Shown here piece after piece: positions 1-16,100 of a stretch of 56,494 bases of DNA (positions within the stretch are counted from its first letter, which is position 1; every line of letters begins with the position of its first letter). The DNA is from a virus. Its lineage: Duplodnaviria > Caudoviricetes. The stretch spans positions 1 through 56,494 of the IMG/VR virus record IMGVR_UViG_3300005613_000078. One strand, 5' to 3'. A program made the position numbers and the translations under genes. The notes under the pieces were generated by a model. It worked only from the letters and a program-made list of their open reading frames with translations, had not been told where the DNA came from and searched no databases.

Positions 1-216
1 GATTCACATTGTGCCGCATGGATTTAAACTGCTGAAGATTGTGTAATGTACGATGAGAATGATGAACCGACTTATCCTTGCGACAAACATCCTGAACTTG
101 CTGAAAGAATCTTCAACGATGTAGGAAACATCGACTACATTTACACTGTTATTCAAGAATGTGTTGATGATCATACAGAAGAGCAATATATGTTACTTCA
201 ACAAGAATTAGTCTGA
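1..216 (+). pseudogene. 5'-truncated small hypothetical ORF with an in-frame TAA at 25-27 (or a 56-aa ORF from ATG at 46)
   Basis: Frame 1 reads DSHCAAWI*TAEDCVMYDENDE...QQELV* with phage-like codon use on both sides of the stop. Its TGA (214-216) abuts repeat R1. Confidence 0.45.
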
Positions 217-251
217 ATTAAAGTTAGTAACCTCGAAAGTTCCCCTATAGT
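217..251 (+). repeat. 35-bp intergenic element R1, directly followed by ATG
   Basis: ATTAAAGTTAGTAACCTCGAAAGTTCCCCTATAGT|ATG. Confidence 0.97.
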
Positions 252-1130
252 ATGCCAAACACACACCTCGAACATCCCGAAGATACCATTTTAACAGGTG
301 ATTTATCTGTCTTCGATGATCTTTACGGCAATGCCTTTCATATTAGTTTGAAGATGGATGGTGCGCCTGCTGTTGTATGGGGAACGCACAATGATCGGTT
401 CTTTGTATGCACCAAATCTGCATTTAACAAGAAAAAGATTAAACTATGTTATACAGTTGATGATATTCATCAACACTTTGGTCATCAGGAAGATGTTGCT
501 GATCTTTTATATTTGATGCTTAAGTATCTTCCCCGTGTGGAAGGTGTGTATCAAGGTGACTTCCTAGGTTACGGTCGGAAACATATACTTAGCAACAACA
601 CGCTAACATATGTTTTCCCTGAAAAGATTGACCAAAAACTTGTTATCGCACCACATACAAAGTATTATGTTGATGGTGAATTGTGTGATGCTGTTCCACT
701 TCCACTAAGGGAATGTTTCGACAATACTCCTCACGTTCGTTTCGTAATGCCTGCGGTTGATCGTATCAATCCAAGACAAAATGCACCTAAGATTGATACA
801 TCTGTTGTGCAGTTCTTGACAGATAAGGAAGCATATCAGGCAAAGCAAAGTATCAATGCAGTTATCAAATCTGGTCAGGAACTTGATGATGCTACCCTAA
901 CAGATATTCTAGGTTGTCAACACCTTGCTAACCTTTATCAGTGGGTGATTGAAGTCAAGGAAGATCTAATTGATAGCATGATTGTTTACAGTGACTTCAT
1001 GACTTTTCTTCCTAATCATGAACAAACTGTCGGTGAAGGTTTTGTATACTGGACCGAACAAGGTGCGTTGAAGCTAGTGAACCGAACTGTATTCAGTTAT
1101 GCAAACTTTACTGAAGGTAGATTTGGTTGA
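252..1130 (+). CDS. RNA-ligase-like covalent nucleotidyltransferase-fold protein (NTHLEHxED family, DUF6267-like)
   Basis: 292 aa. Motif I SLKMDG, motif III-like YQGDF, motif IV EGFV and motif V-like LKLV occur in the order seen in the ATP-dependent ligase/capping enzyme superfamily. Confidence 0.6.
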   Translation: MPNTHLEHPEDTILTGDLSVFDDLYGNAFHISLKMDGAPAVVWGTHNDRFFVCTKSAFNKKKIKLCYTVDDIHQHFGHQEDVADLLYLMLKYLPRVEGVYQGDFLGYGRKHILSNNTLTYVFPEKIDQKLVIAPHTKYYVDGELCDAVPLPLRECFDNTPHVRFVMPAVDRINPRQNAPKIDTSVVQFLTDKEAYQAKQSINAVIKSGQELDDATLTDILGCQHLANLYQWVIEVKEDLIDSMIVYSDFMTFLPNHEQTVGEGFVYWTEQGALKLVNRTVFSYANFTEGRFG

Positions 1131-1165
1131 ATTAAAGTTAGTAACCTTGAAATGTCCATTATAGT
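1131..1165 (+). repeat. 35-bp element R2, followed by GTAAG leader
   Basis: ATTAAAGTTAGTAACCTTGAAATGTCCATTATAGT|GTAAGAAC; begins immediately after the upstream TGA. Confidence 0.97.
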
Positions 1166-1180
1166 GTAAGAACGAAACCT

Positions 1181-1432
1181 ATGAAACCATTTCCCTACAC
1201 TGAAGTCAACGCAATCGAGCGTGAAATGTGTGATCTTCGTGCTGAAGTCTCCAGTCTTCAGATTCAACTTGAAAACACACAACGTTGCCTTAATTCACTG
1301 CAACGTAAGCGTCAGGATCTAATCAACTTCTCCCGCGAAGGTAATCTTTTCGAGCAAATGTTTGGTGAAGAAGTATCAGTGCCAAGTATCTACACTGATA
1401 CTCCCATGGCAGAAGAAGTGTACGGAGGTTGA
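1181..1432 (+). CDS. small hypothetical protein, coiled-coil
   Basis: 83 aa ORF starting 15 nt after R2; heptad-like LRAEVSSLQIQLENTQRCLNSL. Confidence 0.8.
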   Translation: MKPFPYTEVNAIEREMCDLRAEVSSLQIQLENTQRCLNSLQRKRQDLINFSREGNLFEQMFGEEVSVPSIYTDTPMAEEVYGG

Positions 1433-1602
1433 TGATGATTACCAAAAAAGCACAAATGCTCAACATCATGAAAAAATGTGATGGTGGGTCTACATTAACA
1501 CGGGAAGAAAAGTTTGAAGTTTTCTGTCGTGTGTGTGATAATATGTTAAAAGAGGGAAGATTGTCCAAAGCAAATCATAAACGCTGGACAAATATCTGGT
1601 AA
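1432..1602 (+). CDS. small hypothetical protein (56 aa, not in ORF track)
   Basis: TGATG coupling to the upstream gene; MMITKKAQMLNIMKKC...KRWTNIW; the last base of its stop codon is the first base of R3. Confidence 0.75.
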   Translation: MMITKKAQMLNIMKKCDGGSTLTREEKFEVFCRVCDNMLKEGRLSKANHKRWTNIW

Positions 1603-1636
1603 TTAAAGTTAGTAACCTCGAAAGGTCTGCATTGGT
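1602..1636 (+). repeat. 35-bp element R3, directly followed by ATG
   Basis: ATTAAAGTTAGTAACCTCGAAAGGTCTGCATTGGT|ATG. Confidence 0.95.
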
Positions 1637-1840
1637 ATGGAAAGCACAATCGCCCGAAAGATGAACATTCTGGATCAAATCAAAGGTTACAAAGTTCAGG
1701 ATGATGATGGTTCGATCTATACCGTTGTTGATGTTAAGTTCTTCAATGGTATTGTTGACTTGATTGGGTTAGAAACAACTGATGATCGGGTTGTATATTG
1801 CCCCATCAATCGTTATATGGAAATGGCATCAATCGCCTAA
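1637..1840 (+). CDS. small hypothetical protein
   Basis: 67 aa ORF starting exactly after R3; alternative ATG at 1661. Confidence 0.8.
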   Translation: MESTIARKMNILDQIKGYKVQDDDGSIYTVVDVKFFNGIVDLIGLETTDDRVVYCPINRYMEMASIA

Positions 1841-1856
1841 ATTATTAAGGAAAACT

Positions 1857-2054
1857 ATGAACAATACCATGCGAGATTTATTCCAGGAAGCACTTCAATC
1901 ACTGCCAGATTTCATTTATGAAATGAACCCTAATTGGGAAATGGTTTATGATTATGTTTGCGAACAAATCAAAGAAGATGAACTTAATTCAGATCAGATT
2001 TCAAAGATGATTAAAGTTTATGATGATGCGATGGGTTATAGTGAAGCAGGTTAA
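1857..2054 (+). CDS. small acidic hypothetical protein (65 aa, MNNTMRDLF...)
   Basis: ATG at 1857 preceded by AAGGA; same frame as track ORF 1782..2054. Confidence 0.75.
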   Translation: MNNTMRDLFQEALQSLPDFIYEMNPNWEMVYDYVCEQIKEDELNSDQISKMIKVYDDAMGYSEAG

Positions 2055-2064
2055 TCCTTTAACA

Positions 2065-2099
2065 ATTAAAGTTAGTAACCTTGAAATGTCCCCTATAGT
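2065..2099 (+). repeat. 35-bp element R4, directly followed by ATG
   Basis: ATTAAAGTTAGTAACCTTGAAATGTCCCCTATAGT|ATG. Confidence 0.97.
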
Positions 2100-2336
2100 A
2101 TGAATAACACTAAATCCATTACTTTCCGTCAAGCTCTTAACATTCTGGAGGAGCAGTTTGATTCAACTTATCGTGGTATTTCTACGGTAAAAGAAATGAC
2201 AACTGATCTAGTTTCTGCTATTAGTTTTGAAGGTGAAGATCCCAATAAAATCTATCATCGTTTCGAGACTGAAGTTGGTCCGAATCGTATTGTTGAAGAT
2301 GATCAAATCATTGCCCTTGCACTTCATTACGTTTGA
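2100..2336 (+). CDS. small hypothetical protein
   Basis: 78 aa ORF starting exactly after R4. Confidence 0.8.
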   Translation: MNNTKSITFRQALNILEEQFDSTYRGISTVKEMTTDLVSAISFEGEDPNKIYHRFETEVGPNRIVEDDQIIALALHYV

Positions 2337-2344
2337 AAAAAACC

Positions 2345-2575
2345 ATGATTGTTTATCAAGCAGAAAACCAAGGTTGTGCCTATTCCATTGATAGTGAAGG
2401 CACCTTATTCTACACGCCAATGTATCAAGATGGAACTGTGAATCTTGAAGATTGGTGTGAAGTAGATCTAATGCAACTATTAGGTGAAGATGAGAATCTT
2501 CGTTTGGAAGTTGATGCAATCCACGAACAACTTATCAGTATCAGTAAACTAATGGGTGAGTATTTCAAGAAATGA
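2345..2575 (+). CDS. small acidic hypothetical protein
   Basis: ATG at 2345 (TTG at 2333 is an alternative); fills the gap between neighbouring genes. Confidence 0.75.
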   Translation: MIVYQAENQGCAYSIDSEGTLFYTPMYQDGTVNLEDWCEVDLMQLLGEDENLRLEVDAIHEQLISISKLMGEYFKK

Positions 2576-2778
2576 ATCAGCACAAAGCACTGCAACTTCT
2601 CGCGCAAGGTTTTAAGAATGATCTTGCCAAAAGTATCTACGAAGATGAAAAGTTCACTGAATTGATGATGGAATTGTCATTCAAGTTTGTGGAAGATAAC
2701 GTGCCAGTTGTCGAAGAAGATGTTCAATACGAACTGGCACTAATGTTAATGGAAACCCTGAATCTATCAACGTATTAA
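2572..2778 (+). CDS. small hypothetical protein
   Basis: 68 aa; ATGA overlap with the upstream gene; its TAA lies inside R5. Confidence 0.8.
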   Translation: MNQHKALQLLAQGFKNDLAKSIYEDEKFTELMMELSFKFVEDNVPVVEEDVQYELALMLMETLNLSTY

Positions 2779-2808
2779 AGTTAGTAACCTCCAAACGTCC
2801 CCTATAGT
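2774..2808 (+). repeat. 35-bp element R5, directly followed by ATG
   Basis: ATTAAAGTTAGTAACCTCCAAACGTCCCCTATAGT|ATG. Confidence 0.97.
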
Positions 2809-2994
2809 ATGAACAACACTTCAACCAAAATCGAAGAACCAAAGTTCCTCCTTTATGGGGAATGGATTCGCCCTAATGGTCATCAAATGTACGACATCTT
2901 GGGTTATATCAAACCCACAAGAGAGGAAGCAATCGCTACATGTAGGCGACTTAATCCTCACTTCCATATCACACACATTGAGGTCGAAAAATAA
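2809..2994 (+). CDS. small hypothetical protein
   Basis: 61 aa ORF filling the space between R5 and R6. Confidence 0.75.
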   Translation: MNNTSTKIEEPKFLLYGEWIRPNGHQMYDILGYIKPTREEAIATCRRLNPHFHITHIEVEK

Positions 2995-2998
2995 AGGT

Positions 2999-3033
2999 AT
3001 TAAAGTTAGTAACCTCCAAACGTCCCCTATAGT
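2999..3033 (+). repeat. 35-bp element R6 (identical to R5), directly followed by ATG
   Basis: ATTAAAGTTAGTAACCTCCAAACGTCCCCTATAGT|ATG. Confidence 0.97.
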
Positions 3034-3237
3034 ATGAACAACACTTCAATTATGGTAGATTACACTTTGGTCAAAGAACAACTCGGAACCGTTGTCACTG
3101 ACGGTTCAAACGAATATGTTGTTTATGATTTTAAGATTGGGTGTGCTGCTTATCAACTTTGGGACAAAAAAGAACAGGCATTTTATTACACTGATTACAA
3201 TGCCTTCAATACACTTTATCAGCAAATCTCTGGTTGA
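3034..3237 (+). CDS. small hypothetical protein
   Basis: 67 aa ORF between R6 and R7; alternative ATG at 3052. Confidence 0.8.
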   Translation: MNNTSIMVDYTLVKEQLGTVVTDGSNEYVVYDFKIGCAAYQLWDKKEQAFYYTDYNAFNTLYQQISG

Positions 3238-3271
3238 TTAAAGTTAGTAACCTCCAAACGTCCCTATTAAC
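3237..3271 (+). repeat. 35-bp element R7, followed by GTAAG leader
   Basis: ATTAAAGTTAGTAACCTCCAAACGTCCCTATTAAC|GTAAGCAC. Confidence 0.95.
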
Positions 3272-3293
3272 GTAAGCACTGATTCAAACCACA

Positions 3294-3641
3294 ATGCGTA
3301 AGATCGAAGCACAGATGATTGCTGCCATCAACAAGAATCAGAACTGGCAATCTGCTAATACTTCTGTTCACTTTGACGAAGAAACTAACACTTCTATTGT
3401 TCGTCTTCATGGTAACAAAATTGCAGAAATTGATGATACCAGCATGACAATCTTCGATGGTGGTTATCAATCAAAGACGACCAAATCACGCCTTAACGTT
3501 CTCTGTCAGGAGTTCTGTATTGCAGGCGAAGGAGTATTTCAAAAGAATTATAATTGGTTCGTTCGTCATTACGTTGGTGCCGTAAATGGTGTTGATAAGT
3601 TCATCACTAAGGAGTTCACTAATGGTTACGTTTTCGCCTGA
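3294..3641 (+). CDS. hypothetical phage protein (MRKIE...TTKSRLN type)
   Basis: 115 aa ORF after R7; motifs LHGNKIA and GGYQSKTTKSRLN resemble a recurrent phage hypothetical family. Confidence 0.85.
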   Translation: MRKIEAQMIAAINKNQNWQSANTSVHFDEETNTSIVRLHGNKIAEIDDTSMTIFDGGYQSKTTKSRLNVLCQEFCIAGEGVFQKNYNWFVRHYVGAVNGVDKFITKEFTNGYVFA

Positions 3642-3669
3642 TTCATTTGCTCGCTTGATTAACACTAAC

Positions 3670-3894
3670 ATGAAAAACAACACTAACACTTTCGTTCCCA
3701 ATCCCATGCATGAAATGTTAATGGCAAGAGAACAACTAATGGAGGACATTGATTCTATTATTGAAGGTTTTTACTTTGATAATCCAGTTCAAAACTGCTG
3801 CGGCGCTGACCGTCTCCAACTAACTGCTGCTGATAGTGATGAACTCATCCGCACACTATGTGATGCCGTCTGCAAAAACTTCCCCACTAACTAA
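3670..3894 (+). CDS. small hypothetical protein
   Basis: 3' part of track ORF 3586..3894; start uncertain (3670 or 3706). Confidence 0.7.
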   Translation: MKNNTNTFVPNPMHEMLMAREQLMEDIDSIIEGFYFDNPVQNCCGADRLQLTAADSDELIRTLCDAVCKNFPTN

Positions 3895-3904
3895 CACTCT
3901 TATT

Positions 3905-4075
3905 ATGAACAAAGATTCACTAATTGAAGCATATGTTAATCGGGTTATTGATGGTTTAGACCTTGATGATTGTCTTGCTATTCTTCATGATTATATGACC
4001 AAATCGTATGAAGATTATTCACTGGAAGAGATGAAAGAAGAGGTCAATGAGTATTACCCTGAATTGTTAGAATAG
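3905..4075 (+). CDS. small acidic hypothetical protein (56 aa, MNKDSLIEAY...YYPELLE)
   Basis: Non-overlapping ATG within track ORF 3836..4075. Confidence 0.75.
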   Translation: MNKDSLIEAYVNRVIDGLDLDDCLAILHDYMTKSYEDYSLEEMKEEVNEYYPELLE

Positions 4076-4288
4076 GGGTTGAAAATACTCCATAAATACC
4101 ACATTTTCATTGAAAACGATTAAAAAAGGTTTTTTTTAATGTATTTGTGTGTTTTGTTTGATATGTAACAAATCGTGTTAAATGCACTGGAAAGGTACTG
4201 TGAAGATGCTTACAATACGCTGTGAAGGTACTCTTTTGCAGTATTATTGTCCCTATAAAGGTGTCATCTTGTAGTGATATTAGACCGC

Positions 4289-4317
4289 AGTCTATCACAC
4301 CTTCCCGCATAAGTCAA
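4289..4317 (-). promoter_or_regulatory. sigma70-type promoter on the minus strand, with extended -10
   Basis: Minus strand reads TTGACT-17 nt-TAGACT with TG at -15/-14. Confidence 0.65.
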
Positions 4318-4358
4318 CACCGCCCCAGTATCAACATTGAAACCCACACATTTTTCAC

Positions 4359-4387
4359 TTGACTAACACTTACTTTTATAGTATATT
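4359..4387 (+). promoter_or_regulatory. sigma70-type promoter overlapping repeat R8
   Basis: TTGACT-17 nt-TATATT. Confidence 0.6.
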
Positions 4388-4416
4388 GTTAGTAACCTCC
4401 GAATGTCCCCTATAGC
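4382..4416 (+). repeat. 35-bp element R8 (5' end divergent), followed by GTAAG leader
   Basis: TATATTGTTAGTAACCTCCGAATGTCCCCTATAGC|GTAAGCAC. Confidence 0.92.
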
Positions 4417-4434
4417 GTAAGCACACAATCCCAC

Positions 4435-4698
4435 ATGACAGCATCACAAACCACCACCCGGACTCGTTACACTAACGACGAAGAATGGTTGCTGGCAGAT
4501 CTTATCTGTGACGGCAATACTCCTGCTGAAGTATACACTAAGTTCCGTGAGGTTTATGATACCCACAGCGAAGGATCTATCAACCTGCAGTATCGTCAGG
4601 CAGTTAATCTGTGGACCCATGGTAAACAGGGAATGTCACACAAAACTAACAGTTTCATGGAGAAACTAATTGCAATCGACCCTGATACTTTCGGTTGA
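4435..4698 (+). CDS. hypothetical protein, possible Myb/SANT-like helix-turn-helix
   Basis: 87 aa; RYTNDEEWLL...HSEGSINLQY resembles the WTxEEdxxL...RsxxsixxRy pattern. ORF is solid; domain call is tentative. Confidence 0.55.
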   Translation: MTASQTTTRTRYTNDEEWLLADLICDGNTPAEVYTKFREVYDTHSEGSINLQYRQAVNLWTHGKQGMSHKTNSFMEKLIAIDPDTFG

Positions 4699-4721
4699 TT
4701 TGTGTAAACTACAGCGGAGGT

Positions 4722-4756
4722 AATAAAGTTAGTTACCTCCAAATGTCCCCATTAAC
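4722..4756 (+). repeat. 35-bp element R9, followed by GTAAG leader
   Basis: AATAAAGTTAGTTACCTCCAAATGTCCCCATTAAC|GTAAGCAC. Confidence 0.92.
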
Positions 4757-4775
4757 GTAAGCACGAATCACGAAC

Positions 4776-4928
4776 ATGACTCAAACCGAATCATTCATTC
4801 AGGCACTCTACAATCTCATCGATCTGAAAATTATCGACCTGGATGAGTATCAGTGCCTGCTGGACAACTTCACTACCACGGAAGAATTGGATGCTTATCT
4901 AACAGCAAGGGAAGACATCACTATTTGA
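4776..4928 (+). CDS. small acidic hypothetical protein (50 aa, not in ORF track)
   Basis: MTQTESFIQALYNLIDLKIIDLDEYQCLLDNFTTTEELDAYLTAREDITI*, starting 19 nt after R9. Confidence 0.75.
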   Translation: MTQTESFIQALYNLIDLKIIDLDEYQCLLDNFTTTEELDAYLTAREDITI

Positions 4929-4953
4929 CATCGGGGGGAATATGTGGTAGACT
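4925..4953 (+). promoter_or_regulatory. sigma70-type promoter with extended -10
   Basis: TTGACA-17 nt-TAGACT with TG at -15/-14. Confidence 0.7.
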
Positions 4954-5135
4954 TACAGTATTGTGAATTCGACAGTGATTGGGCGTCTTATTTGTTAGCG
5001 TCCGGCGGGCGTAGCGTGTATAAGGTATCGGTATAATGTTTAATGTCCCCCCCCCCTACCTAAAAAAGCGGGTCCCTTCTAACCTACAAAAGTATATACC
5101 CGGTCGCTATATAATTCGTTGAATGAAATAAGTTT

Positions 5136-5357
5136 ATGATAAAAAATTCCCCAGAAAAAATTATGCCCCAAAAGGTTTTTCACATATACGCGAAGGATGA
5201 ATGTTTATATCCAAATCTAACTGAAGAACAATTTAATAATACTTGGACAACCCTTAATGGAATGGTTGGTCTCATGAAGACTGACTATGAAGTTGAGGAT
5301 TTATCTTATGAAGAATTAGAGAAACCCGAACTAGATACAGAAGAATCGTCGTATTGA
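5136..5357 (+). CDS. hypothetical protein
   Basis: 73 aa (alternative start 5163); acidic C-terminus. Confidence 0.75.
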   Translation: MIKNSPEKIMPQKVFHIYAKDECLYPNLTEEQFNNTWTTLNGMVGLMKTDYEVEDLSYEELEKPELDTEESSY

Positions 5358-5382
5358 CAGCGCATATATATCACGTTATAAT
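5354..5382 (+). promoter_or_regulatory. consensus sigma70 promoter
   Basis: Perfect TTGACA-17 nt-TATAAT, ending 21 nt before ATG 5404. Confidence 0.9.
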
Positions 5383-5403
5383 TGAGTTGAGTTTTAAAGA
5401 CTT

Positions 5404-6189
5404 ATGGCAAAAGGATTTACTGTGAAGGCAAAAACGCCCGTCAAAAGTGAAAAGAAAGAAGGTCCAGAATGGGACTATGCTGCAATCAAAGAAAGGATGC
5501 GCGGTAAGGCAATTGTATTCTGTCTTCCAGGGCGTGGATGTTCTTATGCATTCATGAAGAATTTTGTACAACTGTGTTTTGATCTAGTACAGAACCAGAT
5601 GAGTATTCAGATCTCACAGGACTACAGTTCAATGGTTAACTTTGCACGTTGTAAGTGTCTGGGGGCAAACGTACTTCGTGGACCGGATCAGCTTCCATGG
5701 GATGGTAAGTTGAAGTATGACTATCAGTTGTGGATTGATAGTGATATCATATTCAACACTGAAAAGTTCTGGCAGTTGTGTGATATGGCAATTGCTGAAG
5801 ATGGAACAGAGAAAGAAATTGTTGCTGGTTGGTATTCTACTGAAGATGGTAAGACCACTTCTGTTGCACACTGGTTGGAAGAAGATGACTTCCGTAACAA
5901 TGGTGGTGTGATGAACCATGAAATGGTTGATGGTATCAGCAAGCGTAAGAAACCATTTACTGTTGACTACACTGGTTTTGGATGGGTGATGATTCAGAAT
6001 GGTGTGTTTGAAGATCCTAAGATGAAGTATCCTTGGTTTGCACCGAAGATGCAGGTCTTTGAATCTGGTGCAGTACAAGACATGTGTGGTGAAGACGTTT
6101 CATTCTGTCTTGATGCGATTGAAGCAGGATATGAAATTTGGTGTGACCCACGCATTCGTGTTGGTCATGAAAAGATGCGGGTGATCTGA
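5404..6189 (+). CDS. GT-A fold glycosyltransferase-like protein
   Basis: 261 aa; DxD motif LWIDSDI plus TGFGW, GEDVSFC and WCDPRIRVGH, typical of GT2-like enzymes. Confidence 0.75.
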   Translation: MAKGFTVKAKTPVKSEKKEGPEWDYAAIKERMRGKAIVFCLPGRGCSYAFMKNFVQLCFDLVQNQMSIQISQDYSSMVNFARCKCLGANVLRGPDQLPWDGKLKYDYQLWIDSDIIFNTEKFWQLCDMAIAEDGTEKEIVAGWYSTEDGKTTSVAHWLEEDDFRNNGGVMNHEMVDGISKRKKPFTVDYTGFGWVMIQNGVFEDPKMKYPWFAPKMQVFESGAVQDMCGEDVSFCLDAIEAGYEIWCDPRIRVGHEKMRVI

Positions 6190-6219
6190 TAAGATTACGG
6201 AAGTGATCTGATGTACACT

Positions 6220-6244
6220 AAAGGGGGTTGACACCCTCTTTTTT
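6220..6244 (+). terminator. rho-independent terminator overlapping a -35 box
   Basis: AAAGGGGG-TTGACA-CCCTCTT followed by a T-run. Confidence 0.7.
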
Positions 6245-6256
6245 ATTGGATATACT
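6228..6256 (+). promoter_or_regulatory. sigma70-type promoter
   Basis: TTGACA-17 nt-TATACT upstream of ATG 6280. Confidence 0.85.
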
Positions 6257-6279
6257 TACAAAGTAATTAATAAGGTCAC

Positions 6280-6426
6280 ATGGCAAAGGTAAGCAAGTCA
6301 CTAATGGGCAATCAGTTTATTGAAGCAACTCCCAAAAAAACCCGACAGGGTCAAGGGAAGCATACAAAGTATGCGTCATCCAGTAGAAACAATGCTAAGA
6401 AACCATATCGTGGCCAAGGACGTTGA
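6280..6426 (+). CDS. small basic hypothetical protein (48 aa, not in ORF track)
   Basis: MAKVSKSLMG...PKKTRQGQGKHTKY...KPYRGQGR; TAAGG Shine-Dalgarno-like sequence and own promoter. Confidence 0.8.
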   Translation: MAKVSKSLMGNQFIEATPKKTRQGQGKHTKYASSSRNNAKKPYRGQGR

Positions 6427-6797
6427 AGTTTAATACTTTATTGTACACCTACCTATCACCTAGTACAGTGTGTGATGGGGTGGGTGTTTTTTCTTTAGTT
6501 GATATACCTGCTGATACTGTTATCTTTAGTCCAAAATCCCGCGAAAAAATACGTTTCTCTGAAGTATCTGAAGAAGTGGGCAAAAAAATGCGAGAACTAA
6601 CGTATTGTGATGAAGATGGTTTTTGGGTTGATGATGATTTAGATCGTTTAGGTCCGCAGTATTATATCAATCATTCATTAAATCCAAATGTGTCCTATAA
6701 TAAGGATACTGGTTGTCTATATGCCACAAGGGATATTGATGCTAACGAAGAACTACTAGACTATTATTTTCCTGAAGAACGAGAATGGCCTACCTGA
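6423..6797 (+). CDS. SET-domain protein (putative lysine methyltransferase)
   Basis: GVGVF, YINHSLNPN and ATRDIDANEELLDYY match the SET signatures GxG, NHSxxPN and ELxxDY-like; TTG start overlaps the upstream TGA. Confidence 0.85.
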   Translation: MKFNTLLYTYLSPSTVCDGVGVFSLVDIPADTVIFSPKSREKIRFSEVSEEVGKKMRELTYCDEDGFWVDDDLDRLGPQYYINHSLNPNVSYNKDTGCLYATRDIDANEELLDYYFPEEREWPT

Positions 6798-7447
6798 ATC
6801 ATAGTTTACCTGATTGGTCTTGTTACATCCGTAATGAATTCCTTTTTAATCATAAGAAGGGTCATGGAGAAGTAACACGATGTGATGTGCATAGCGTTGC
6901 TAGTATAGAAAAAAGAACACCCCTGTTTGAAGCATTCCTAGAGAATGGTGTGAACTGGACTAGAAGACCACTACATGCGTTCTGCTGGCGTCCTGACGCG
7001 GAAATAGAACCATTAGAGGACACAATGTACTGGGACTGCTTTTCGCCTTATGTGGACGTACAGAGACGGCATAGATTGGCAGGATTGAAAGCAGAGTTGA
7101 TTCGTCCTGATGGTAAAAAGGCAGTTGGTAATTATATGTTTACCTTAGACTGGTCATGGGAGAATAAGGGAATGCCTGACTTGAACTATTCAGAAACACC
7201 TGAACATAAGTGTGCCCACTTGTTCAAGATGGAGAACGGCAACTATTATGCTTATCCAAACAATCGTATTATCTGGTATGATGATGCATGGACTTTTAAT
7301 CGTATTAAGAAAAATCCTGGATATGAAATTGATCTAACTGTTTATTCCGTTGAAGGGAGACGGACAATTGAAACCGGTGATGATTACATGTATGAAGTCA
7401 CACACCTAGATAATGATGATTCTATCGAAGTGATTAACTATGACTGA
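6785..7447 (+). CDS. conserved phage hypothetical protein
   Basis: 220 aa, aromatic-rich, with WDCFS, EHKCAH and YPNNRIIW motifs; overlaps neighbours in operon style. Confidence 0.85.
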   Translation: MAYLNHSLPDWSCYIRNEFLFNHKKGHGEVTRCDVHSVASIEKRTPLFEAFLENGVNWTRRPLHAFCWRPDAEIEPLEDTMYWDCFSPYVDVQRRHRLAGLKAELIRPDGKKAVGNYMFTLDWSWENKGMPDLNYSETPEHKCAHLFKMENGNYYAYPNNRIIWYDDAWTFNRIKKNPGYEIDLTVYSVEGRRTIETGDDYMYEVTHLDNDDSIEVINYD

Positions 7448-7601
7448 TGATAACTTATTGAGGGAGATTGCTAACGACAATCAAACTCCTAAAAATAAGA
7501 AAAAAGTAAATAGCGATGGTTTATTTGAAACCACTGATTGCTCTGACCCTGATCATCAGTGTACTTGCGGACCACAGCAGGTAATAATTACCGAAGATTA
7601 G
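7440..7601 (+). CDS. small hypothetical protein (53 aa, not in ORF track)
   Basis: MTDDNLLREIANDNQTPK...CSDPDHQCTC...; fills the gap before gp25. Confidence 0.6.
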   Translation: MTDDNLLREIANDNQTPKNKKKVNSDGLFETTDCSDPDHQCTCGPQQVIITED

Positions 7602-7605
7602 TGTT

Positions 7606-7612
7606 CTAAATA
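7606..7612 (+). promoter_or_regulatory. T4-type late promoter
   Basis: CTAAATA in the intergenic gap before gp25. Confidence 0.6.
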
Positions 7613-7633
7613 AGGTAGAATTCTTGTATTAGT

Positions 7634-8035
7634 TTGCCAGTCCAAAGGAAATCTAAAGGTTTCAAAGATATTAGCGCATCATTCAAGATCAATCCAGTCA
7701 ATCAAGACTTGATTGGTCTTGTAAATTTTAATGCGATTGCTCGTTCGGTTCGTAATTTGATTCTTACACAACCTGGCGAAAGACCTTTTAATCCTTCCCT
7801 TGGTTCTGGCGTTAATGCGTTATTGTTTAATAACTTGGATCGTTTAACTGCCAGTAGTATTAAAAGCGAAATTGAAAATACAATTGAAAATTTTGAACCC
7901 AGAGTGGAATTGAATGAAGTTACAGTTGAAGCTAACGCTTCAAAGCATAAGTTTGATGTAAAGATTCAATATTATATTATTGGTATTCCGGCAGACTTAC
8001 AAGAAGTATCACTTGCATTAGTTCCTACTAGGTAA
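7634..8035 (+). CDS. gp25: baseplate wedge subunit gp25
   Basis: AIARSVRNLILTQPGERPFNPSLGS and IENFEPRV gp25/GPW motifs; upstream of gp6. Confidence 0.92.
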   Translation: MPVQRKSKGFKDISASFKINPVNQDLIGLVNFNAIARSVRNLILTQPGERPFNPSLGSGVNALLFNNLDRLTASSIKSEIENTIENFEPRVELNEVTVEANASKHKFDVKIQYYIIGIPADLQEVSLALVPTR

Positions 8036-8036
8036 A

Positions 8037-10169
8037 ATGCCGTTAGTTAATTTCAGCAATTTAGATTTCGATCAGATCAAAACGTCCATCAAGGACTATC
8101 TTCGTGCGAATTCTAATTTCACCGATTATGATTTTGAAGGGTCTAACCTTTCTACAATTATTGACACATTAGCGTATAACACTTATATCACTTCATACAA
8201 CGCCAACATGGTGACTAATGAAGTGTTTATTGACAGTGCGACGTTAAGAGAAAACGCCGTGTCATTAGCGAGAAATATTGGATATATGCCACGCTCTAGA
8301 AGAGCAGCAAGAATGGTTATATCCTTTCAGGTGTCTAACTTAAGTAATATAGCATCTCTAACATTAAACAAAGGATTGGTAGCAGTCACAAGACAACGTT
8401 TTGGTAATGCTGACTTTGTATTTTCTATTCCTGAAGATATTACCGTTGCTGTAAGTCAAAGTGGTATCGCTGAATTCAATGATATCATGATCTATGAAGG
8501 AACATATTTAACACAGACATATAATATTTCTTCAAGAGATCCAAATCAGAGATTTATACTACCCAACACTGGAGTAGATACCACTACAATAAGCACAATA
8601 GTAAGAGAGTCCTCAACGTCAACAGTAACGAATAAGTTTAATCTTTATGATAGTTTAGTAGATATTGGACCTGAGGCAAAGATTTATTTTATACAAGAAA
8701 TAGACGGGGAAAGATATGAACTATTATTTGGTGATGGAATTATTGGTAAAAAATTAGAAGAACCTAATCAGGTCAATATTAGTTACATTGTAAGTAATGG
8801 ACAATTTGGAAATAATGTATCTTTCTTGTCCTTTGCTGGTTCATTGACCGCAAACAATGGTGATGCTGTTACAACTGGCATCTCACAAATTTCTATTGAT
8901 GGACCATCAACTGGTGGCGCACCAATTGAAAGTGTAGAATCCATTAAAAAATATGGACCACAGATTTATGCTTCACAAAATAGAGCGGTGACTGCTGCTG
9001 ATTATGAAGCACTAATTCCTAAACTTTATCCCGAAGCAGAATCAGTATCGGCATATGGCGGTGAAGAATTAACGCCACCACAATATGGTAAAGTATTTGT
9101 TAGTATAAAACCCATTAACGGAGTATTTCTTTCTAATTGTTTGAAAGATAATTTAAATGCAGCATTAGCAAAATATAAAGTAGCAGGTATTAAAATTGAT
9201 TTGATTGATTTAGGATATCTTTATATTGAAGCAAACTCCAATGTGTATTATAACAGTAATTTAACTCCTTCACCAGATGCTGTGAAAACAAAAGCATTGG
9301 ATGCAATTGAAAAATATGCAAATTCAACTGAACTTAATAAATTTGGTGCTAGATTTAAGTACAGCAAATATCAATGTGTTATTGATAAATCAGACCCATC
9401 CATCACATCAAATATAACCACAATCGACATTAGAAGAGACCTAGAACCTAAAATTAGTTCATTTGCTGAGTATGAACTTTGTTATGGAAATAGATTTAGA
9501 ATTAAAAATCATTGCCGTAGTATATCTGAAAACGCTAAAAATGGATTTAATATTAAATCATCAGGATTTAAGGTAAGTGGAATTGCTGATACTGTTTACA
9601 TAGGAGACTATCCAAACGCTAATCAAATAACTGGAGAACTTTTTCTTTTTAAACTTAATTCACCCCGCAACCCAGTCATAGTAAAAAGAAACATTGGTGT
9701 TGTAGATTATGTAAAAGGAGAAATTATGATCAGTCCAATTAAGATTATTTCTACAGAAGTATCCAAAGGTAACACACCAATAATTGAAATATCTGCTGTA
9801 CCTTTTTCAAATGATGTCATTGGTCTTCAGGACCTTTATCTTCAATTAGATATGAATTATACTGTGGTAAATACTATTATAGATCAGATTGATTCTGGCA
9901 ATGATGTATCAGGAACAAACTTCATTGTATCACCAAGTTATGGTGGAAGTGAATTAGTTCGTGGTGTTCCAATCTTGGGAACTCAAAGTGGTGGTTTATC
10001 ATCAGAAACAACTGAACAACAAATGAGTCCCACAGTGCTTGAAGGATCCACTCTCCCTGTGATGCAACAAAACTCTAACACAGGGACATCGGTTGTCACA
10101 CCTGCAAGACCTTCTACATCTTATACACCACCCTCATCTTCATCTTCCGGTTCTTCTAGCGGTTACTAA
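8037..10169 (+). CDS. gp6: baseplate wedge subunit gp6
   Basis: LDFDQIK...FTDYDFEGSNLS...LAYNT, FGDG and QNRAVTAADY gp6 motifs. Confidence 0.95.
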   Translation: MPLVNFSNLDFDQIKTSIKDYLRANSNFTDYDFEGSNLSTIIDTLAYNTYITSYNANMVTNEVFIDSATLRENAVSLARNIGYMPRSRRAARMVISFQVSNLSNIASLTLNKGLVAVTRQRFGNADFVFSIPEDITVAVSQSGIAEFNDIMIYEGTYLTQTYNISSRDPNQRFILPNTGVDTTTISTIVRESSTSTVTNKFNLYDSLVDIGPEAKIYFIQEIDGERYELLFGDGIIGKKLEEPNQVNISYIVSNGQFGNNVSFLSFAGSLTANNGDAVTTGISQISIDGPSTGGAPIESVESIKKYGPQIYASQNRAVTAADYEALIPKLYPEAESVSAYGGEELTPPQYGKVFVSIKPINGVFLSNCLKDNLNAALAKYKVAGIKIDLIDLGYLYIEANSNVYYNSNLTPSPDAVKTKALDAIEKYANSTELNKFGARFKYSKYQCVIDKSDPSITSNITTIDIRRDLEPKISSFAEYELCYGNRFRIKNHCRSISENAKNGFNIKSSGFKVSGIADTVYIGDYPNANQITGELFLFKLNSPRNPVIVKRNIGVVDYVKGEIMISPIKIISTEVSKGNTPIIEISAVPFSNDVIGLQDLYLQLDMNYTVVNTIIDQIDSGNDVSGTNFIVSPSYGGSELVRGVPILGTQSGGLSSETTEQQMSPTVLEGSTLPVMQQNSNTGTSVVTPARPSTSYTPPSSSSSGSSSGY

Positions 10170-10175
10170 TATAAA

Positions 10176-13100
10176 ATGGCAATAGATAGAGTAAAAATTC
10201 AGGACATTCTTGCTTCTCAGGTTCCCGAGTATGTCAAGGATGATTTTCCTCTTCTGGTAGAATTTTTAGAGCAATATTATATCTCACAAGAAACAAAGGG
10301 AGGAACATTTGATCTGATTCAAAATCTAGATCAATATGTAAAAGTTGATCAATTATATAATCTAAAAACAGATACGATTCTAAATTCAGACATTAGTTCT
10401 ATAGACACCACGATTGTAACTGATGTTAATAGTAACTTTACTGAGGGATTTGCAAAAGAAAATGGTTTAATCAAAATTGATAATGAAATTATTGCATATG
10501 GATATAAGACAGAAACAACCTTTGAGGACTGTGTAAGAGGTTTCAGCGGCATTTCAAGTTATGTTGGGACTAATTCATCAGACGAGTTAGTATTTGATGA
10601 AACAATAGCATCCTCCCATAAAAAAGGTTCTTCAATTCAAAATTTAAACGTACTTTTTCTTCAAGAGTTTTTTGCAAAACTTAAGCGTCAAGTGCTGCCA
10701 GGTTTTCAAGATAGAAAACTTTTTGATAATTTAGATCAAAGAAACTTTATTTTTGGTGCTAGTTCTTTTTATCAATCAAAAGGAACTGATGCCTCTGTTG
10801 AAATTCTTTTTAGAGCACTTTATGGAAAAGAAGCAGAAGTAATCAGACCCAGTGAATTTTTAATTAGGCCATCCGATGCTGATTATAGAATAACTAAAGA
10901 CTTTGTTGTAAAATCATATATTGGTGACCCTTTAGATTTAAAAGGACGCACCCTCTATCAACCAATCATTAGTGCAAATGGTTCTATAGTGGGTATCAAT
11001 ACTATTACAGGTGAAATTGATAATAATACAATCATTAGAGGGTCTGTTTGTGACATTGAAAGATTGCCTTTTGATGAGGGGCAATATTATCAAGTTTCAA
11101 TTGATATTGGATATGATAGGGATACTGACGTAGAAGGAAGTATCCGTGGACTTTATCAATCAAATCCCAAAACACAAATCGTTAATACCGTAGGTGCAGG
11201 TTCTAGTATTATAGATGTTGATTCAACTATTGGATTTCCAGATAAGGGATCTTTATTTACTTCTGATATTGATAATAATGTTATCAAAATTAATTATGGT
11301 TCAAAAACAATAAATCAATTTAATGAGATATCAACGTCCGATATAACAGGTGAAATAGCAGAAGGTTCAAACTTAAATTATAATAATACTTGTTTTGCTT
11401 TTAAAGGTGATGATAAGATAGAAGTAATAATGACTTCTACTTTAACTAACCTTTTATTAAAAGAACAAACTAAGAATTTAAATGTTGGTGATACTATTAA
11501 TGTAAAGTCTATTGGTCTTCCTGCCACTTATAAAAAAGCAACAAACTGGTTTTATAATATAAAAACTAAATTTCAGTCAAAAGAAATAACTGAAATAGAC
11601 AGAACAGAGTCAATTTATAGATTTCAATTATTCAATAGACACTTTTTTAAAATTGGATATGCGATAAGAGTATCAGGTTCTGATGGTGTGATTAGAACTG
11701 GTAATGTAACTTCTGTAAACTCAGATTTTTCATTTACTGTAAAACTGAGCACTTCTTTAAGTGATCTTCAACTATCACTGAATTATACTGTCACTAATTT
11801 ATTATCGAAAAGTGATTCCTCAGATTACACTCAATTAAGAAATTATACAACTAATGTTCAGAATATCTACACTAAGTTCAACAAAGATATTTTAGTAGCA
11901 TCTAACTCTATACCAACATATCTTCAGACACCCCTCAATCCTTACGATAAAAAAATTACTTTTTCGGGATCTGCTTCAAGTGATGGTACAATCATCATTA
12001 CCCCAACCACAGAACATGGATTCTTTACAGGTGATTCTGTATTTTATAAAGGAAGTATCACAACTACAACCACAACGACTCCAGACGGTAATCAAATCAT
12101 CACCGAAGTAACTAATAAGTTCACTAATATGGATGAACTTGTTTATTTTGTTAAAAGGATAGATTCGACTAGTATAAAACTTGCAAGAAGCAAATCAGAT
12201 CTCTTTGATAATAAATTTATAGTTCCATCTGGAACTGCTATTAATAATCAATTAATTTACTTTGATTTCTATCAAAAGAGCGTAAACCAGCAAACATTAT
12301 ACAGAGAATTTGTAGAACCCAACAACAAATCTGGAACTTTTAATACGACACCAGGATATGTTGGTATGCTTATCAATGGTGTTGAAATTCTGAACTTTAA
12401 ATCACCAAAAAGTGTATATTATGGTAATATCAATGAAGTTGAAATTGTTGATCAAGGATATGGATATGATGTAATCAATCCACCTCTTTTGAATATCACT
12501 GACATACTCGGTGTAGGTGCTACAGGCACATGCTCTGTTGATGGTTCATTAGAAAGAATTGATCTTAAAGATACTGGTTATGATTATGTTGATACCCCCA
12601 TTGTAAGAATAACTGGAGGTTTTCCAGAGGAAGATGCCTCTGCGAAAATAAACTTATCGTCTATTAACCATAGTGTAGTTTTTAATGCTGGTGCGGCAAG
12701 TACAAATGTAAAACTTAATCCAAATAATACGATTGGATTCGGCACCTTTCATAAATTTAGAGATTTTGAAAGAGTAGTATATAACACTTATGGTTCAACA
12801 TCTGTCACAGGAATATCGACCAACTCATTATACTATGTCAAGGTAGTTGATGCCTTCACTATTAATCTTCATAAAAGTGAATCTGATGCCATATCAGGAA
12901 TTAATACAATTAGTCTTACTGCATATGGAAATGACACCCATTCAATAGATGCACATGAAAGAAAGAAAATCGTTACGAATATTATTGTAACAAATCCAGG
13001 AAAAGGATATAAGAACAATGAAAGAAATATCAATCCAATAGGTGTTGTTACTTCACTGAACACTATTAATATTCTGAATCATAATTACAATGAAAAAGAT

Positions 13101-16100
13101 ATTATTAGATACACACCGGGCACTAGTCCGATAAGTGGTATTAATTCAAATACTGATTATTTTGTAAAAGTTGATGATAAAGACTCAATAAGATTATTTG
13201 AAATAGGTGTAGGGGGAACTGATAGAAACTATTACTATGATAATGATATTGAAGTTAGTATTGCTTCTACAGGTAATGGTTCATTGAATTATGAAAGGAT
13301 CAATGTTTCGGTTGAAGGAACAATTGGAGTCAATTCTCTTACTGATCAAGATTTTACTTGTAAAGTTATTCCAGTATTCAGAGGTTCAATTACCTCAACA
13401 AACATAACAAGCAAAGGTGTTGGATATGGTGCATCAACAATTTTAAATTTTGATAGACAACCCGATATTACATTTGATAGTGGAAGTAATGCTCAACTTT
13501 TCCCTGTCGTATCTAATGGAAAAATCATTGATGTAATAGTTCAAAATTCTGGAACAGGATACAACTCCCCACCAGATTTAGAAATCGTTGGTGTTGGAAG
13601 TTTTGCTAAATTAACACCCATTATTCATAATGGATCAATTGTAACGGTTAATATCATATCTGGTGGTATAGGATACAATCAAGGCGATATACAATTAAAA
13701 GTCAAACCATCTGGTCTTGATGCTACTGCAGTGGCAAAAATTCAAGAATGGAATGTAGATATTTTTACCAATGATTTTGAAAACATTGATAGTGATGATG
13801 GGTTTTTAGATGATAATATTTCTTCCACCAATCTTCAATATGGACACGTTTATGCTCCAAGAAAACTTAGAGAATCCATATATGCGATTGATTTTCAAGG
13901 AAATACACTTTACGGGGAACCTGACCTAAAAGTAGAAAATGGCATAGAAATTGATTCATTGCAGCACTCACCAATAATCGGTTGGGCATATGATGGTAAT
14001 CCAATTTATGGTCCGTATGGTTATTCTAATGGAACTGGAGGTGCAATTAAACAAATGCGCCCTGGTTACGAATTAGTAACAAATCAATCACAAAGACCAC
14101 CATTTTCTAGTTTTAAAGAAGGTTTCTTTGTTGAAGATTATGTTTTTAAAGGAACAGGCGATCTTGATGAAAATAATGGAAGAATTTGCGTAACACCAGA
14201 TTTCCCAGATGGTGTTTATGCTTACTTTGCTACTTTCAATCTTTCTGTCGATACAAGTGGAACTTTTGACAAGTATAAAAGACCTCAATTTCCATATTTG
14301 ATTGGTCCAACATTTAAATCTGAACCAAATCCTTTTAACTTTAAAAAAACCTCCAATCAAACTGAATATGATATAGAAAAAAATGATTGGTTAAGAAACA
14401 CATATTTTTATTATATTAACAATCAATATGCAGAATATGATTATATCTTCAATTCAGATAAGATAAAGGCACAATATTTAAAAATTACTGGTGCCTCTTC
14501 CGGTGTGATTAATACCGTTGGTATTGTGACTGGTGGTACACAATATCGTGTTAATGACAGAGTATTCTTTGACAATAAAGGAACAGGCGGAATAAATGCT
14601 AGAGCGTCTGTATCTAGAGTTGATGGTAAAAAAGTCAACACGGTAAGTATAGCGACTACCACAGTAAACAATTTTGAATTTGTTCCGTTTGGTTCTAGAT
14701 CAAGATTTATTGGAATTTCTTCAACACCACATAAGTTTAACAACGGTGAATTTATCACTATTGATGGTTTATCTCAATATTATAGCAATTTAGACGGAAC
14801 TTATCGTATTGGTGTAAGCACAAGCAATTTTGTGTTGACTGAAGCAGTAGGGGCAGCATCAACCACAGGAATCAATACTTTCATTTCTGTTTCAGGTAAT
14901 CTTCAATACCCCAGATTAGTTGTTAATGATATCCTAAAAATAGGAAATGAAAAAGTAAAAGTTCTTAACATAGAACCAAATAGAATTCGTGTGTCTAGAA
15001 AGCAAGAGGACACTGTATCATCAGCACACACATCTACAACACCCATCACCTCTGATCCTAACAAATTAACTGTTGAGGTAGGATCTGCTAAAACTACAAA
15101 AATATTAACTTTTAACAGAGAACTTTATTTTATTCCATCTGAGTCTGTTGGTATTGGAACTTCTATTGGTGTTGGTATTGGAAACACTCTTTCAATAACA
15201 AATCCAGGCGCTGGTGTTTCTGAAATTTTTGTTGGACCAAGACAGATTTATTTCCCTGGACATGGATTACGTCTTAATGATAAGTTAAGATATAACTTGA
15301 ATGGTGGTTCATCAATCAACTACTGGAACGGAATTGCTGGGGTGGCAAACACAAACCTAACTGGCATTACAACACTTTATGCTGTTCCATTTAATGAAAC
15401 TTTTATTGGTGTAAGTTCAAATCTAGTTGGACTTGGCACTACAGGAAAATATATTGGTATTAATACGAACACTGGTTTACTTTACTTTACTGGTATTGGA
15501 ACTGGAGACAATCATAGCTTTAAAACGGACTTGACAAATGTCATAACTGCTAATGTATCGAGAAATACCGTAACTGTTGCTACAGATGAAACACATGGTC
15601 TTACTTATCTTGATAATATTAATTTTGATCTTAAACCAAAAAGAGAAATCACTATTGATGTTAGATATGACGATTTTAATAGAAGAATTATTTTTAATCC
15701 AAAAAATTTCACTGCAGGGGATATCAATCTAAGTCAAAATACTATATCATTTTCAGATCATAACTTTAGAACTGGTGATAGAGTTATTCATACTTCATCA
15801 TCTCCCTCTGGAGGATTAGATAATGAAGGAATGTATTTTGTTTATCTTTATAAGAAAAATGAAATCAAACTCGTTAATAATAAATCTGATTTAAATCTCA
15901 TTGAACCAACATTTGTTAATATTACTTCTGCTTCTAATGGAACCCTATCAAGAATTAATCCATTCATTGAAGTTAGTAGAAAGAATACTTTGAAATTTGA
16001 TTTATCTGATCAATCGCTCTCTTTTATTTCAAACGGAATTAGATATTCTGCTTTTGACATGAAAGTCTTTAGTGATATAGAATTTAATAATAGATTTTTA

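Follow-up and report, generated by a model that had tools for sequence, protein, structure and literature searches.

An array of nine repeats and its gene units

The stretch analysed here, referred to throughout as the window, is the complete 56.5-kb IMG/VR record IMGVR_UViG_3300005613_000078 (56,494 nucleotides), which is rated at ~26% of a genome. Its gene content and DNA matches identify it as a fragment of a T4-like cyanomyovirus. Bases 1-5000 carry a series of small open reading frames (ORFs) on the + strand, 5' of a glycosyltransferase-like gene, a PurM-region block and a baseplate-wedge module, and a 35-bp element recurs in this small-gene region as an array. A preliminary description of the sequence had listed nine copies, R1 to R9, starting between positions 217 and 4722, and all nine were recovered, each on the + strand. 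A 17-mer of the element is identical in R1-R7 and carries two mismatches in R9, while R8 deviates in its first six bases. Allowing up to three mismatches, the 17-mer has 8 matches in the window against 0.38 expected, a count that 100 shuffles never attained. With a weight matrix derived from the nine copies, these score 45.8-57.7 bits, against a maximum of 8.7 over 20 shuffles; on both strands of the 56.5 kb the matrix found nothing else above 8 bits, in agreement with the earlier report of no further full copy. The copies align without gaps, with pairwise identities of 22-35 of 35 positions (mean 28.5) and start-to-start spacings of 914, 471, 463, 709, 225, 238, 1145 and 340 bp. R5 and R6 have an identical run of 53 nt in common, and R5 and R7 share their first 28 nt. 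The palindrome GTTA-G-TAAC to which the preliminary description had drawn attention is not kept: position 13 is T in R9 and in phage P-TIM68, and C in phage S-B05. Since the record covers only ~26% of a genome, the array could start just upstream of base 1; the relative L136 has an additional copy 251 nt upstream of its R1 equivalent.

The anatomy of the element was drawn from 234 unique copies, in which some of the conservation of the central box is owed to ascertainment through a 14-mer. Information content is at most 0.3 bits upstream of position 1, high over positions 1-35 and moderate to +9, so that the conserved block measures ~44 nt, the 35-mer plus ~9 nt more on its 3' side. The block runs from an A/T-rich start through the almost invariant box GTTAGTAACCTCyAAA (positions 7-22) and TCCnC to TATAGT, which overlaps TAGTrT, and ends in the tail RTAAsCAC. 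The box persists in related loci fetched through the ORF1 protein, a route independent of the motif, where 75 of 107 copies have either of its two main exact forms. Each position of TATAGT is 75-96% conserved, and a TAnnnT in register 30 or 32 occurs in 216 of the 234 copies (92%). Variants in this -10-like part compensate, as TGTAGT copies keep TAGTGT and TATAAT or TATATT copies lose the GT. No conserved fold was detected in a random 80 elements with 30 nt of upstream flank included (mean z-score = -0.24), and positions 1-8100 gave no Rfam match at E <= 1. The element thus has no stem-loop of the kind that defines the promoter-early stem-loops (PeSLs) of other T4-type phages and is unlikely to be a structured RNA. 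R9 alone can form a hairpin, at 4714-4746, where the upstream GGAGGTAA is pairable with the element's TTACCTCC in an 8-9 bp stem (-16.7 kcal/mol fold); R1-R8 show no pairing comparable to it. Possible pairing of the tail with a small RNA was also considered. The window's gaps hold no complement of the tail, and the matches to that complement with one mismatch inside the array are the elements themselves or coding sequence of ORF11 or ORF12. A miniature inverted-repeat transposable element was ruled out by the absence of terminal inverted repeats, the single orientation and the intergenic position of every copy.

The position of the element is as constrained as its sequence. All nine copies, and every copy in the mapped related loci, lie on the coding strand. 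The upstream stop codon overlaps or touches the element in 123 of 230 copies, which leaves no space for a hairpin, and lies within 6 nt in 165 of 230; its last base is element position 5 in 44 of these, where positions 3-5 are commonly TAA. On the 3' side, the next long ORF begins 0 nt after the element in 42 of 164 cases and 14-25 nt after it in 108, and in no case at 1-13 nt. An ATG directly follows TATAGT in 69 of 235 copies (~30%). It is the sole candidate start in 41 of these, in 25 another in-frame ATG comes at +12 to +27, and in 3 the abutting ATG opens a 6-codon ORF. We defined elements as array-first when at least 2 kb of element-free sequence lies upstream. None of 22 array-first elements belongs to the ATG-adjacent class, compared with 78 of 226 internal ones (binomial p 9e-5, or ~0.004 if the 22 are collapsed to ~13 orthologous groups by our count).

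The gene units of the window fit this pattern, with an upstream stop codon in contact or overlap with R1, R2, R3, R5 and R7, as described earlier, and one to three ORFs per unit. The 18 ORFs (ORF0-ORF17) are mutually dissimilar at E <= 0.01, also in line with the earlier account, and those of the array are all on the + strand. ORF0 (46-216, 56 aa) lies upstream of R1 (217-251; 53.3 bits), which the stop codon TGA at 214-216 contacts. The ATG of ORF1 (252-1130, 292 aa; DUF6267/phrog_455) follows R1 immediately, and since residue 3 of ORF1 corresponds to position 1 of the DUF6267 profile, this R1-abutting ATG is the real start. ORF1 has a K-M-D-G stretch, which we take to resemble the KxDG motif of nucleotidyl-transferases and ligases. 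R2 (1131-1165; 48.6 bits) also contacts the upstream stop and is separated by a 15-nt spacer from the ATG of ORF2 (1181-1432), which is followed in the same unit (1181-1602) by ORF3 (1432-1602; phrog_336). R3 (1602-1636; 46.4 bits) has the weakest -10-like part (ATTGGT); its first base is covered by the upstream TAA and an ATG follows immediately, opening a unit (1637-2054) with ORF4 (1637-1840) and ORF5 (from 1782 or 1857 to 2054). R4 (2065-2099; 54.5 bits), again with an ATG immediately 3', heads the three genes of 2100-2778, namely ORF6 (2100-2336), ORF7 (2345-2575; phrog_4138) and ORF8 (2572-2778; phrog_3298).

R5 (2774-2808) contains the upstream TAA (2776-2778) and abuts the ATG of a single gene, ORF9 (2809-2994, 61 aa). 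R6 (2999-3033) likewise abuts the ATG of a one-gene unit, ORF10 (3034-3237, 67 aa), with a second in-frame ATG 18 nt later. The upstream TGA covers the first base of R7 (3237-3271; 50.8 bits), whose 3' part reads TATTAAC and which stands a 22-nt spacer away from ORF11 (3294-3641; Kyano_Gp96, PF23790). The R7 unit (3294-4075) continues with ORF12 (from 3586, 3622 or 3670 to 3894) and ORF13 (from 3839 or 3905 to 4075). Then comes an ORF-free gap of 306 nt inside the array (4076-4381), with a terminator-like hairpin at 4219-4242 and an A6GG-T8 stretch; it folds with a z-score of -1.52, has no Rfam match and is spanned, with small indels (insertions or deletions), by a contig from an RNA library (X20). 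R8 (4382-4416; 45.8 bits) heads ORF14 (4435-4698, 87 aa), for which we found no family match and no homolog among the related loci. The divergent first six bases of R8 are the -10 of a host-type promoter-like site, TTGACT-N17-TATATT, at 4359-4387. R9 (4722-4756; 48.6 bits), with the box GTTAGTTACC, the same as in P-TIM68, heads ORF15 (4776-4928, 50 aa).

Distribution of the element and exchange of units

The preliminary description had presented the array as its best candidate for an undescribed system. The array is neither isolated nor unique, as members of this element family are found in many viral contigs, the isolates P-TIM68, S-B05 and S-SM2 among their carriers. The 14-mer core is present in at least 118 IMG/VR stretches, many of them with single, possibly chance, matches; among the matches listed, more than 20 loci have 2-7 same-strand copies with matching extended sequence. 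In the loci fetched through the ORF1 protein, an array can reach 14 copies in 11 kb, and its strand is invariably that of the genes. The window's box in its R9 form (GTTAGTTACCTCTAAA) recurs 13 times in P-TIM68, always on a single strand and confined to 47.1-56.1 kb of the 197-kb genome. In S-B05 there are at least 11 copies of a variant whose box reads TTACTCACCT and whose 3' half and tail are unchanged, and S-SM2 has only the 3' half in common with the window element. When single elements were searched by BLAST against isolate phages, only partial matches to the S-B05 group or matches to P-TIM68 were returned; the elements are too short and too diverged for BLAST.

The gene for the Kyano_Gp96 ortholog allows these types to be compared in front of one gene. 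Here the window type stands before it, P-TIM68 has the same box in that place, and S-B05 and S-SM2 have variants that agree in the 3' half. A different, longer element precedes small genes, this ortholog included, in Syn9 (L161), S-RIM8 (L164), S-RIM2 (L165), P-TIM40 (L198) and S-PM2 (L196). It has an inverted-repeat box, GTGTGmCA...TGkCACA, then ~30 nt and TATAAT or TATAAG, and measures ~70-80 nt in Syn9 and P-TIM40. In Syn9, P-TIM40, P-HM2, P-SSM2 and S-PM2 the window's box does not rise above background; in Syn9, for instance, it has 7 matches compared with 7 in the control. Finding compact and long palindromic types before the same orthologous gene suggests at least two early-signal architectures in these phages.

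Comparison with related contigs indicated that the units are exchanged. The preliminary description had proposed promoter-plus-gene cassettes shuffled through the repeat. Its view of the organisation proved largely right and its mechanism partly right: units are indeed gained, lost, replaced and relocated, and the element is a more frequent endpoint of these changes than a plain junction, but the breakpoints are not confined to it. A 6.3-kb contig from sequencing run X2 is collinear with 151-5011 and jumps from 2773 to 3237, the start of R5 to the start of R7, so that it is without exactly R5-ORF9 and R6-ORF10. Contigs of runs X3 and X20, which with X2 represent three separate studies, lack the same two genes and have a joint from 2802 to 3266, inside the element. 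One X3 contig fuses the end of an R2-type element (1165) to the ORF15 leader (4757), so that an R2-type element heads ORF15. The X2 contig also has a deletion of 2124-2572 with no end at an element and a replacement of 3643-4082, and in it R9-ORF15 is exchanged for 35 other letters. The runs matching the stretch each share at most 0.20 of the sampled words and consist of assembled contigs, which are blind to transcript starts; this includes X20, the sole RNA run among the matches, whose contigs can prove neither starts nor transcription.

The same was seen across 47 IMG/VR loci, which are the 54 with at least two elements minus the redundant L013, L032, L037, L144, L058, L066 and L151. Among 8794 ends of high-scoring segment pairs (HSPs), starts cluster at element -5 to +9 (1355) and stops at +30 to +49 (563). 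A neighbouring gene is kept across 32% of element junctions (n=2865) compared with 61% of plain junctions (n=3513), and the difference holds at every level of identity: 13 and 51% at or below 80% identity, 43 and 62% at 80-90%, 67 and 81% at 90-95%, and 71 and 88% above 95%. In individual pairs the edges are sharp. L011:10245-12199 matches L036:5577-7525 at 96%, beginning 6 nt inside an element and stopping on the final base of a second one; apart from this, these two loci share just one match of at least 85%, a 589-bp HSP that is ~1.9 kb upstream and 85% identical. Blocks shared by L142 and L143 and by L050 and L138 finish at element+34 or start at element+6 or +7. Homologs of ORF0 (at other array places in L126 and L149), ORF9 and ORF12 stand at differing places, set in a backbone of ORF1...ORF3...ORF7...ORF11...ORF16-ORF17.

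Isolates gave the same picture in a milder form, and here mis-assembly is unlikely. S-B05 and RB11-B are collinear at 96-99%, with indels or replacements at four places. Of the eight resulting boundaries, four are at element edges, 6, 11 and 19 nt before the first base and 14 nt past the last base, the latter at the start of the next gene. In S-B43 nearly the entire array is replaced.

In agreement with the preliminary description, which saw no recombinase gene in the window, neither the window nor the complete genomes of P-TIM68 and S-B05 encode a tyrosine or serine recombinase. Neither Phage_integrase (PF00589) nor Resolvase matched in any of the three, while the controls were positive in 14 of 14 and 12 of 14 genomes, respectively. 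A RecA/UvsX-type protein is encoded in P-TIM68 and S-B05. With no site-specific recombinase and a UvsX-type protein present, the simplest mechanism would be general homologous recombination on the 28-53 nt of identity.

The element as a proposed promoter and recombination seam

From its position, strand and anatomy we infer that the element is a compact cis-acting transcription signal, a promoter of this lineage for its small-gene block, the copies of which double as recombination seams; we put the probability of this combined reading at roughly 0.6. The element is most likely a promoter type specific to this T4-like cyanomyovirus lineage, and the small non-structural genes that it serves would presumably be expressed early, by positional analogy. 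Under this proposal, host RNA polymerase would start ~7 nt past TATAGT, at the A of the tail that is 82% conserved. The 16-nt box is the best conserved part of the element and occupies the place of the spacer that sigma-70 leaves unconstrained, which suggests a reader distinct from the sigma-70 -35 contact. Candidate readers are a host factor, a phage protein that is injected, and a phage repressor acting to switch the block off. No terminator-like site was found in 1-4100, and without an internal terminator the array would be read as nested co-directional transcripts. Genes that abut the element by their ATG would then be translated from transcripts begun at copies further upstream. The array-first comparison fits such a dependence, since with none of the 22 ATG-adjacent, genes of this class seem to need an upstream copy. 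Identity of 28-53 nt every 0.2-1.1 kb would in addition make the copies seams for the phage's general, UvsX-type homologous recombination. As a side effect of this repeated identity, units would come, go, be replaced or change places between copies, and the ORFs would survive such exchanges intact since stop codon and start signals both lie within the seam.

We also considered a stronger version, in which the box is the site of a phage-encoded factor, either an injected activator or an early shut-off repressor, the element represents a second, compact class of phage-specific promoter that differs both from host-type promoters and from the long palindromic type of Syn9 and P-TIM40, and the seams work as a recombinase-free integron-like device. 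With a stop codon, a promoter and sometimes a start codon in every seam, any crossover inside it would then give an intact, expressed gene unit. We offer this version tentatively.

Several observations weigh against the promoter-and-seam proposal. A scan for host-type promoters (TTGACA-N16-18-TATAAT, at least 9 of 12 matches) flagged none of the nine copies, while sites at 5354-5382 and 6228-6256 matched at 12 and 11 of 12; the -35 candidate of the element, TTAGTA, agrees with TTGACA at 3 of 6 positions. The A at the second position of the -10 is only 75% conserved. TAnnnT also occurs in registers 3 and 12 (83-88% of copies), and as it is found in registers 3, 12, 30 and 32 at 70-88% each, this criterion cannot pick the -10 register. 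ORF1 keeps its ATG-abutting element in every mapped locus, which would be odd if that copy were unable to express ORF1. The early timing draws on positional analogy and on the abstract of a published study. With regard to exchange, 204 of 219 junctions with an element and 226 of 254 without one were broken at least once, a difference that is not significant (Fisher p = 0.15). The HSP and locus-pair counts are not independent events and the ORF calls are crude, and most of the related contigs were assembled from short metagenome reads, a procedure that can produce false joins at repeats. The other four of the eight S-B05/RB11-B boundaries lie at plain gene ends. Finally, promoters mark the edges of transcription units, where insertions are tolerated, so enrichment of breakpoints is by itself no proof of causation.

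This last point leads to the rival that we take most seriously, although we consider it rather unlikely: the element would be a purely regulatory motif, a promoter or operator with no causal part in recombination, and breakpoints would gather where indels at unit edges survive selection. The frequent breakage of plain junctions, the isolate boundaries distant from elements and the X2 deletion, which begins 24 nt beyond R4 and outside the element, are all as expected if this were so. It does not account as readily for blocks of 96% identity that start and finish inside elements, for an R5/R7 joint that falls within the common 28 nt in contigs of three studies, or for the clustering of HSP ends at element edges. 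In addition, the detection of circles has demonstrated T4-type recombination acting on PeSL repeats of comparable length (PMC2839356). On balance we infer that the element causes exchanges rather than marking places where they are tolerated. At the other extreme, the repeats could be the sites of a site-specific recombinase, in an integron-like array or a mobile element. The array resembles an integron in its organisation, as same-strand short repeats between unrelated small genes, and the preliminary description had drawn this analogy. The resemblance ends there: integrase, folded attC-like sites and a single common promoter are all missing, every unit comes with a promoter-like signal of its own where integron cassettes lack promoters, and the joints fall at varying places in and near the element. 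As neither recombinase domain was detected in the window, P-TIM68 or S-B05, and the element has no folded structure, the integron analogy is not supported and we regard this explanation as extremely improbable.

Two further alternatives concern how the signal would act on expression. One is a non-canonical promoter of T7-like or other non-sigma-70 geometry, with transcription starting at the purine right after TATAGT to give leaderless mRNAs or leaders of 14-25 nt. A purine does come first after TATAGT in 163 of 164 cases and in all 234 copies, and the restriction of start codons to exactly 0 or at least 14 nt, with none at 1-13, would be in keeping with it. Of 69 copies with an ATG at 0, 66 have it in the frame of the long ORF (~15 families to 1 by our reading), and P-TIM68 has an AAGGA-like stretch 7-11 nt past the hexamer that a start at +7 would cut off. 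Such a promoter does not predict that ATG-adjacency should be absent from 22 array-first elements and present in 35% of internal ones, a result that argues against leaderless transcripts and for read-through from upstream copies. A -10 hexamer abutting the start site is also incompatible with the geometry of the bacterial holoenzyme; the lack of a T7-like RNA polymerase domain (PF00940) in S-B05 is uninformative or at best weak, since the controls were silent too. We judge this model improbable. Slightly more doubtful still is a role in RNA, in which the element would be a site of processing or a signal for translation re-initiation on a long read-through transcript and no promoter at all. Its location exactly between stop and start codons, often containing both, and the need of the ATG-adjacent class for upstream transcription would suit such a role. 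The element has neither a conserved fold nor an Rfam match, however, and no Shine-Dalgarno-like part, as its ACCTCC is the anti-Shine-Dalgarno sequence itself and not its complement. Its 3' half is -10-like with compensating variants, and array-first copies exist after at least 2 kb of element-free sequence.

Among known systems, the promoter-and-seam proposal comes closest to the PeSLs described in the T4-type phages RB49/phi1, T4/PST and KVP40/nt-1, for which homologous recombination has been proposed and partly demonstrated, as far as the accessible parts of these papers tell (PMC2839356, PMC4122927). The earlier comparison with RB49-type phages was apt. Like the window element, PeSLs are repeated intergenic motifs that carry a promoter (a probable one here), lie on the coding strand, crowd into hyperplastic small-gene regions, vary in sequence by phage group and have no dedicated recombinase, and in both, indels and replacements between close relatives lie at or beside the motif, here as enrichment and not exclusively. 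The window element, by contrast, lacks a stem-loop or terminator part, a good -35 and a Shine-Dalgarno sequence. It is also the shorter of the two, runs up against or into the upstream stop and in ~30% of copies abuts the next ATG. With no stem-loop and a poor -35, we do not file the element as a PeSL and treat it as a variant that would work like one. The accessible text of the PeSL papers does not mention cyanophages (PMC2839356, PMC4122927), and in the accessible part of Puxty et al. 2015 (PMC4503421) the density of PeSLs in S-PM2 was judged too low.

Two other classes of early signal invite comparison. The window element shares with the T4 early promoters ~40 nt of conservation, beyond the needs of sigma-70, and repetition before many small early genes. 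T4 early promoters are reportedly (Miller and colleagues, in 2003) read by host sigma-70 from a clear -35 of the GTTTAC type and a near-consensus -10, whereas the window element has a poor -35 and its best conserved 16-nt box in the would-be spacer. In cyanophages, Doron and colleagues are said to have described in 2016 a novel element regulating the early genes of Syn9 and P-TIM40, one conserved across T4-like cyanophages. That element is reportedly, like ours, phage-specific and not host-like, and stands before small genes in the same genome region. The elements that we saw in Syn9 and P-TIM40 are longer and palindromic, in contrast to the compact window type. The longer palindromic type is probably the published early element, and the compact type is at most a relative of it. 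No description of the box motif was found in literature searches, which did not extend to supplementary files.

It is in the small-gene regions of T4-like cyanophages that most of their unknown, host-specific genes lie, and these regions differ even among close isolates. If the promoter-and-seam proposal is true, a seam that carries a stop codon, a promoter and often a start codon would explain how genes are exchanged without broken frames or broken expression. The box would also offer a simple sequence handle for early-gene blocks and unit boundaries in metagenomes.

Sequence flanking the array

Downstream of R9, a further host-type promoter-like site (TTGACA-N17-TAGACT, with TG) lies at 4925-4953, at the end of ORF15, and is directed into a 207-nt non-coding gap. 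This gap, 4929-5135, folds no better than its shuffles (z-score +1.84). Its last part, ~5080-5135, is a non-coding stretch with CTAACCTACAAAAGTAT immediately 5' of ORF16 (5136-5357). Near-identical stretches precede the corresponding small gene in S-RIM8, S-RIM2 and P-TIM40, making this a conserved non-coding block.

The next ORF, 5404-6189 (261 aa; phrog_1574), is weakly glycosyltransferase-like, and the site at 5354-5382 upstream of it is a perfect TTGACA-N17-TATAAT. The site at 6228-6256, with 11 of 12 matches, overlaps a terminator-like hairpin at 6220-6241. With these two host-type sites, the window has at least two promoter types side by side, provided that the repeated element is one of them. 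The structural module includes two very large ORFs, at 10176-22373 (4065 aa) and 25043-32653 (2536 aa), and the S-B05 counterpart of the former is annotated as a baseplate wedge initiator.

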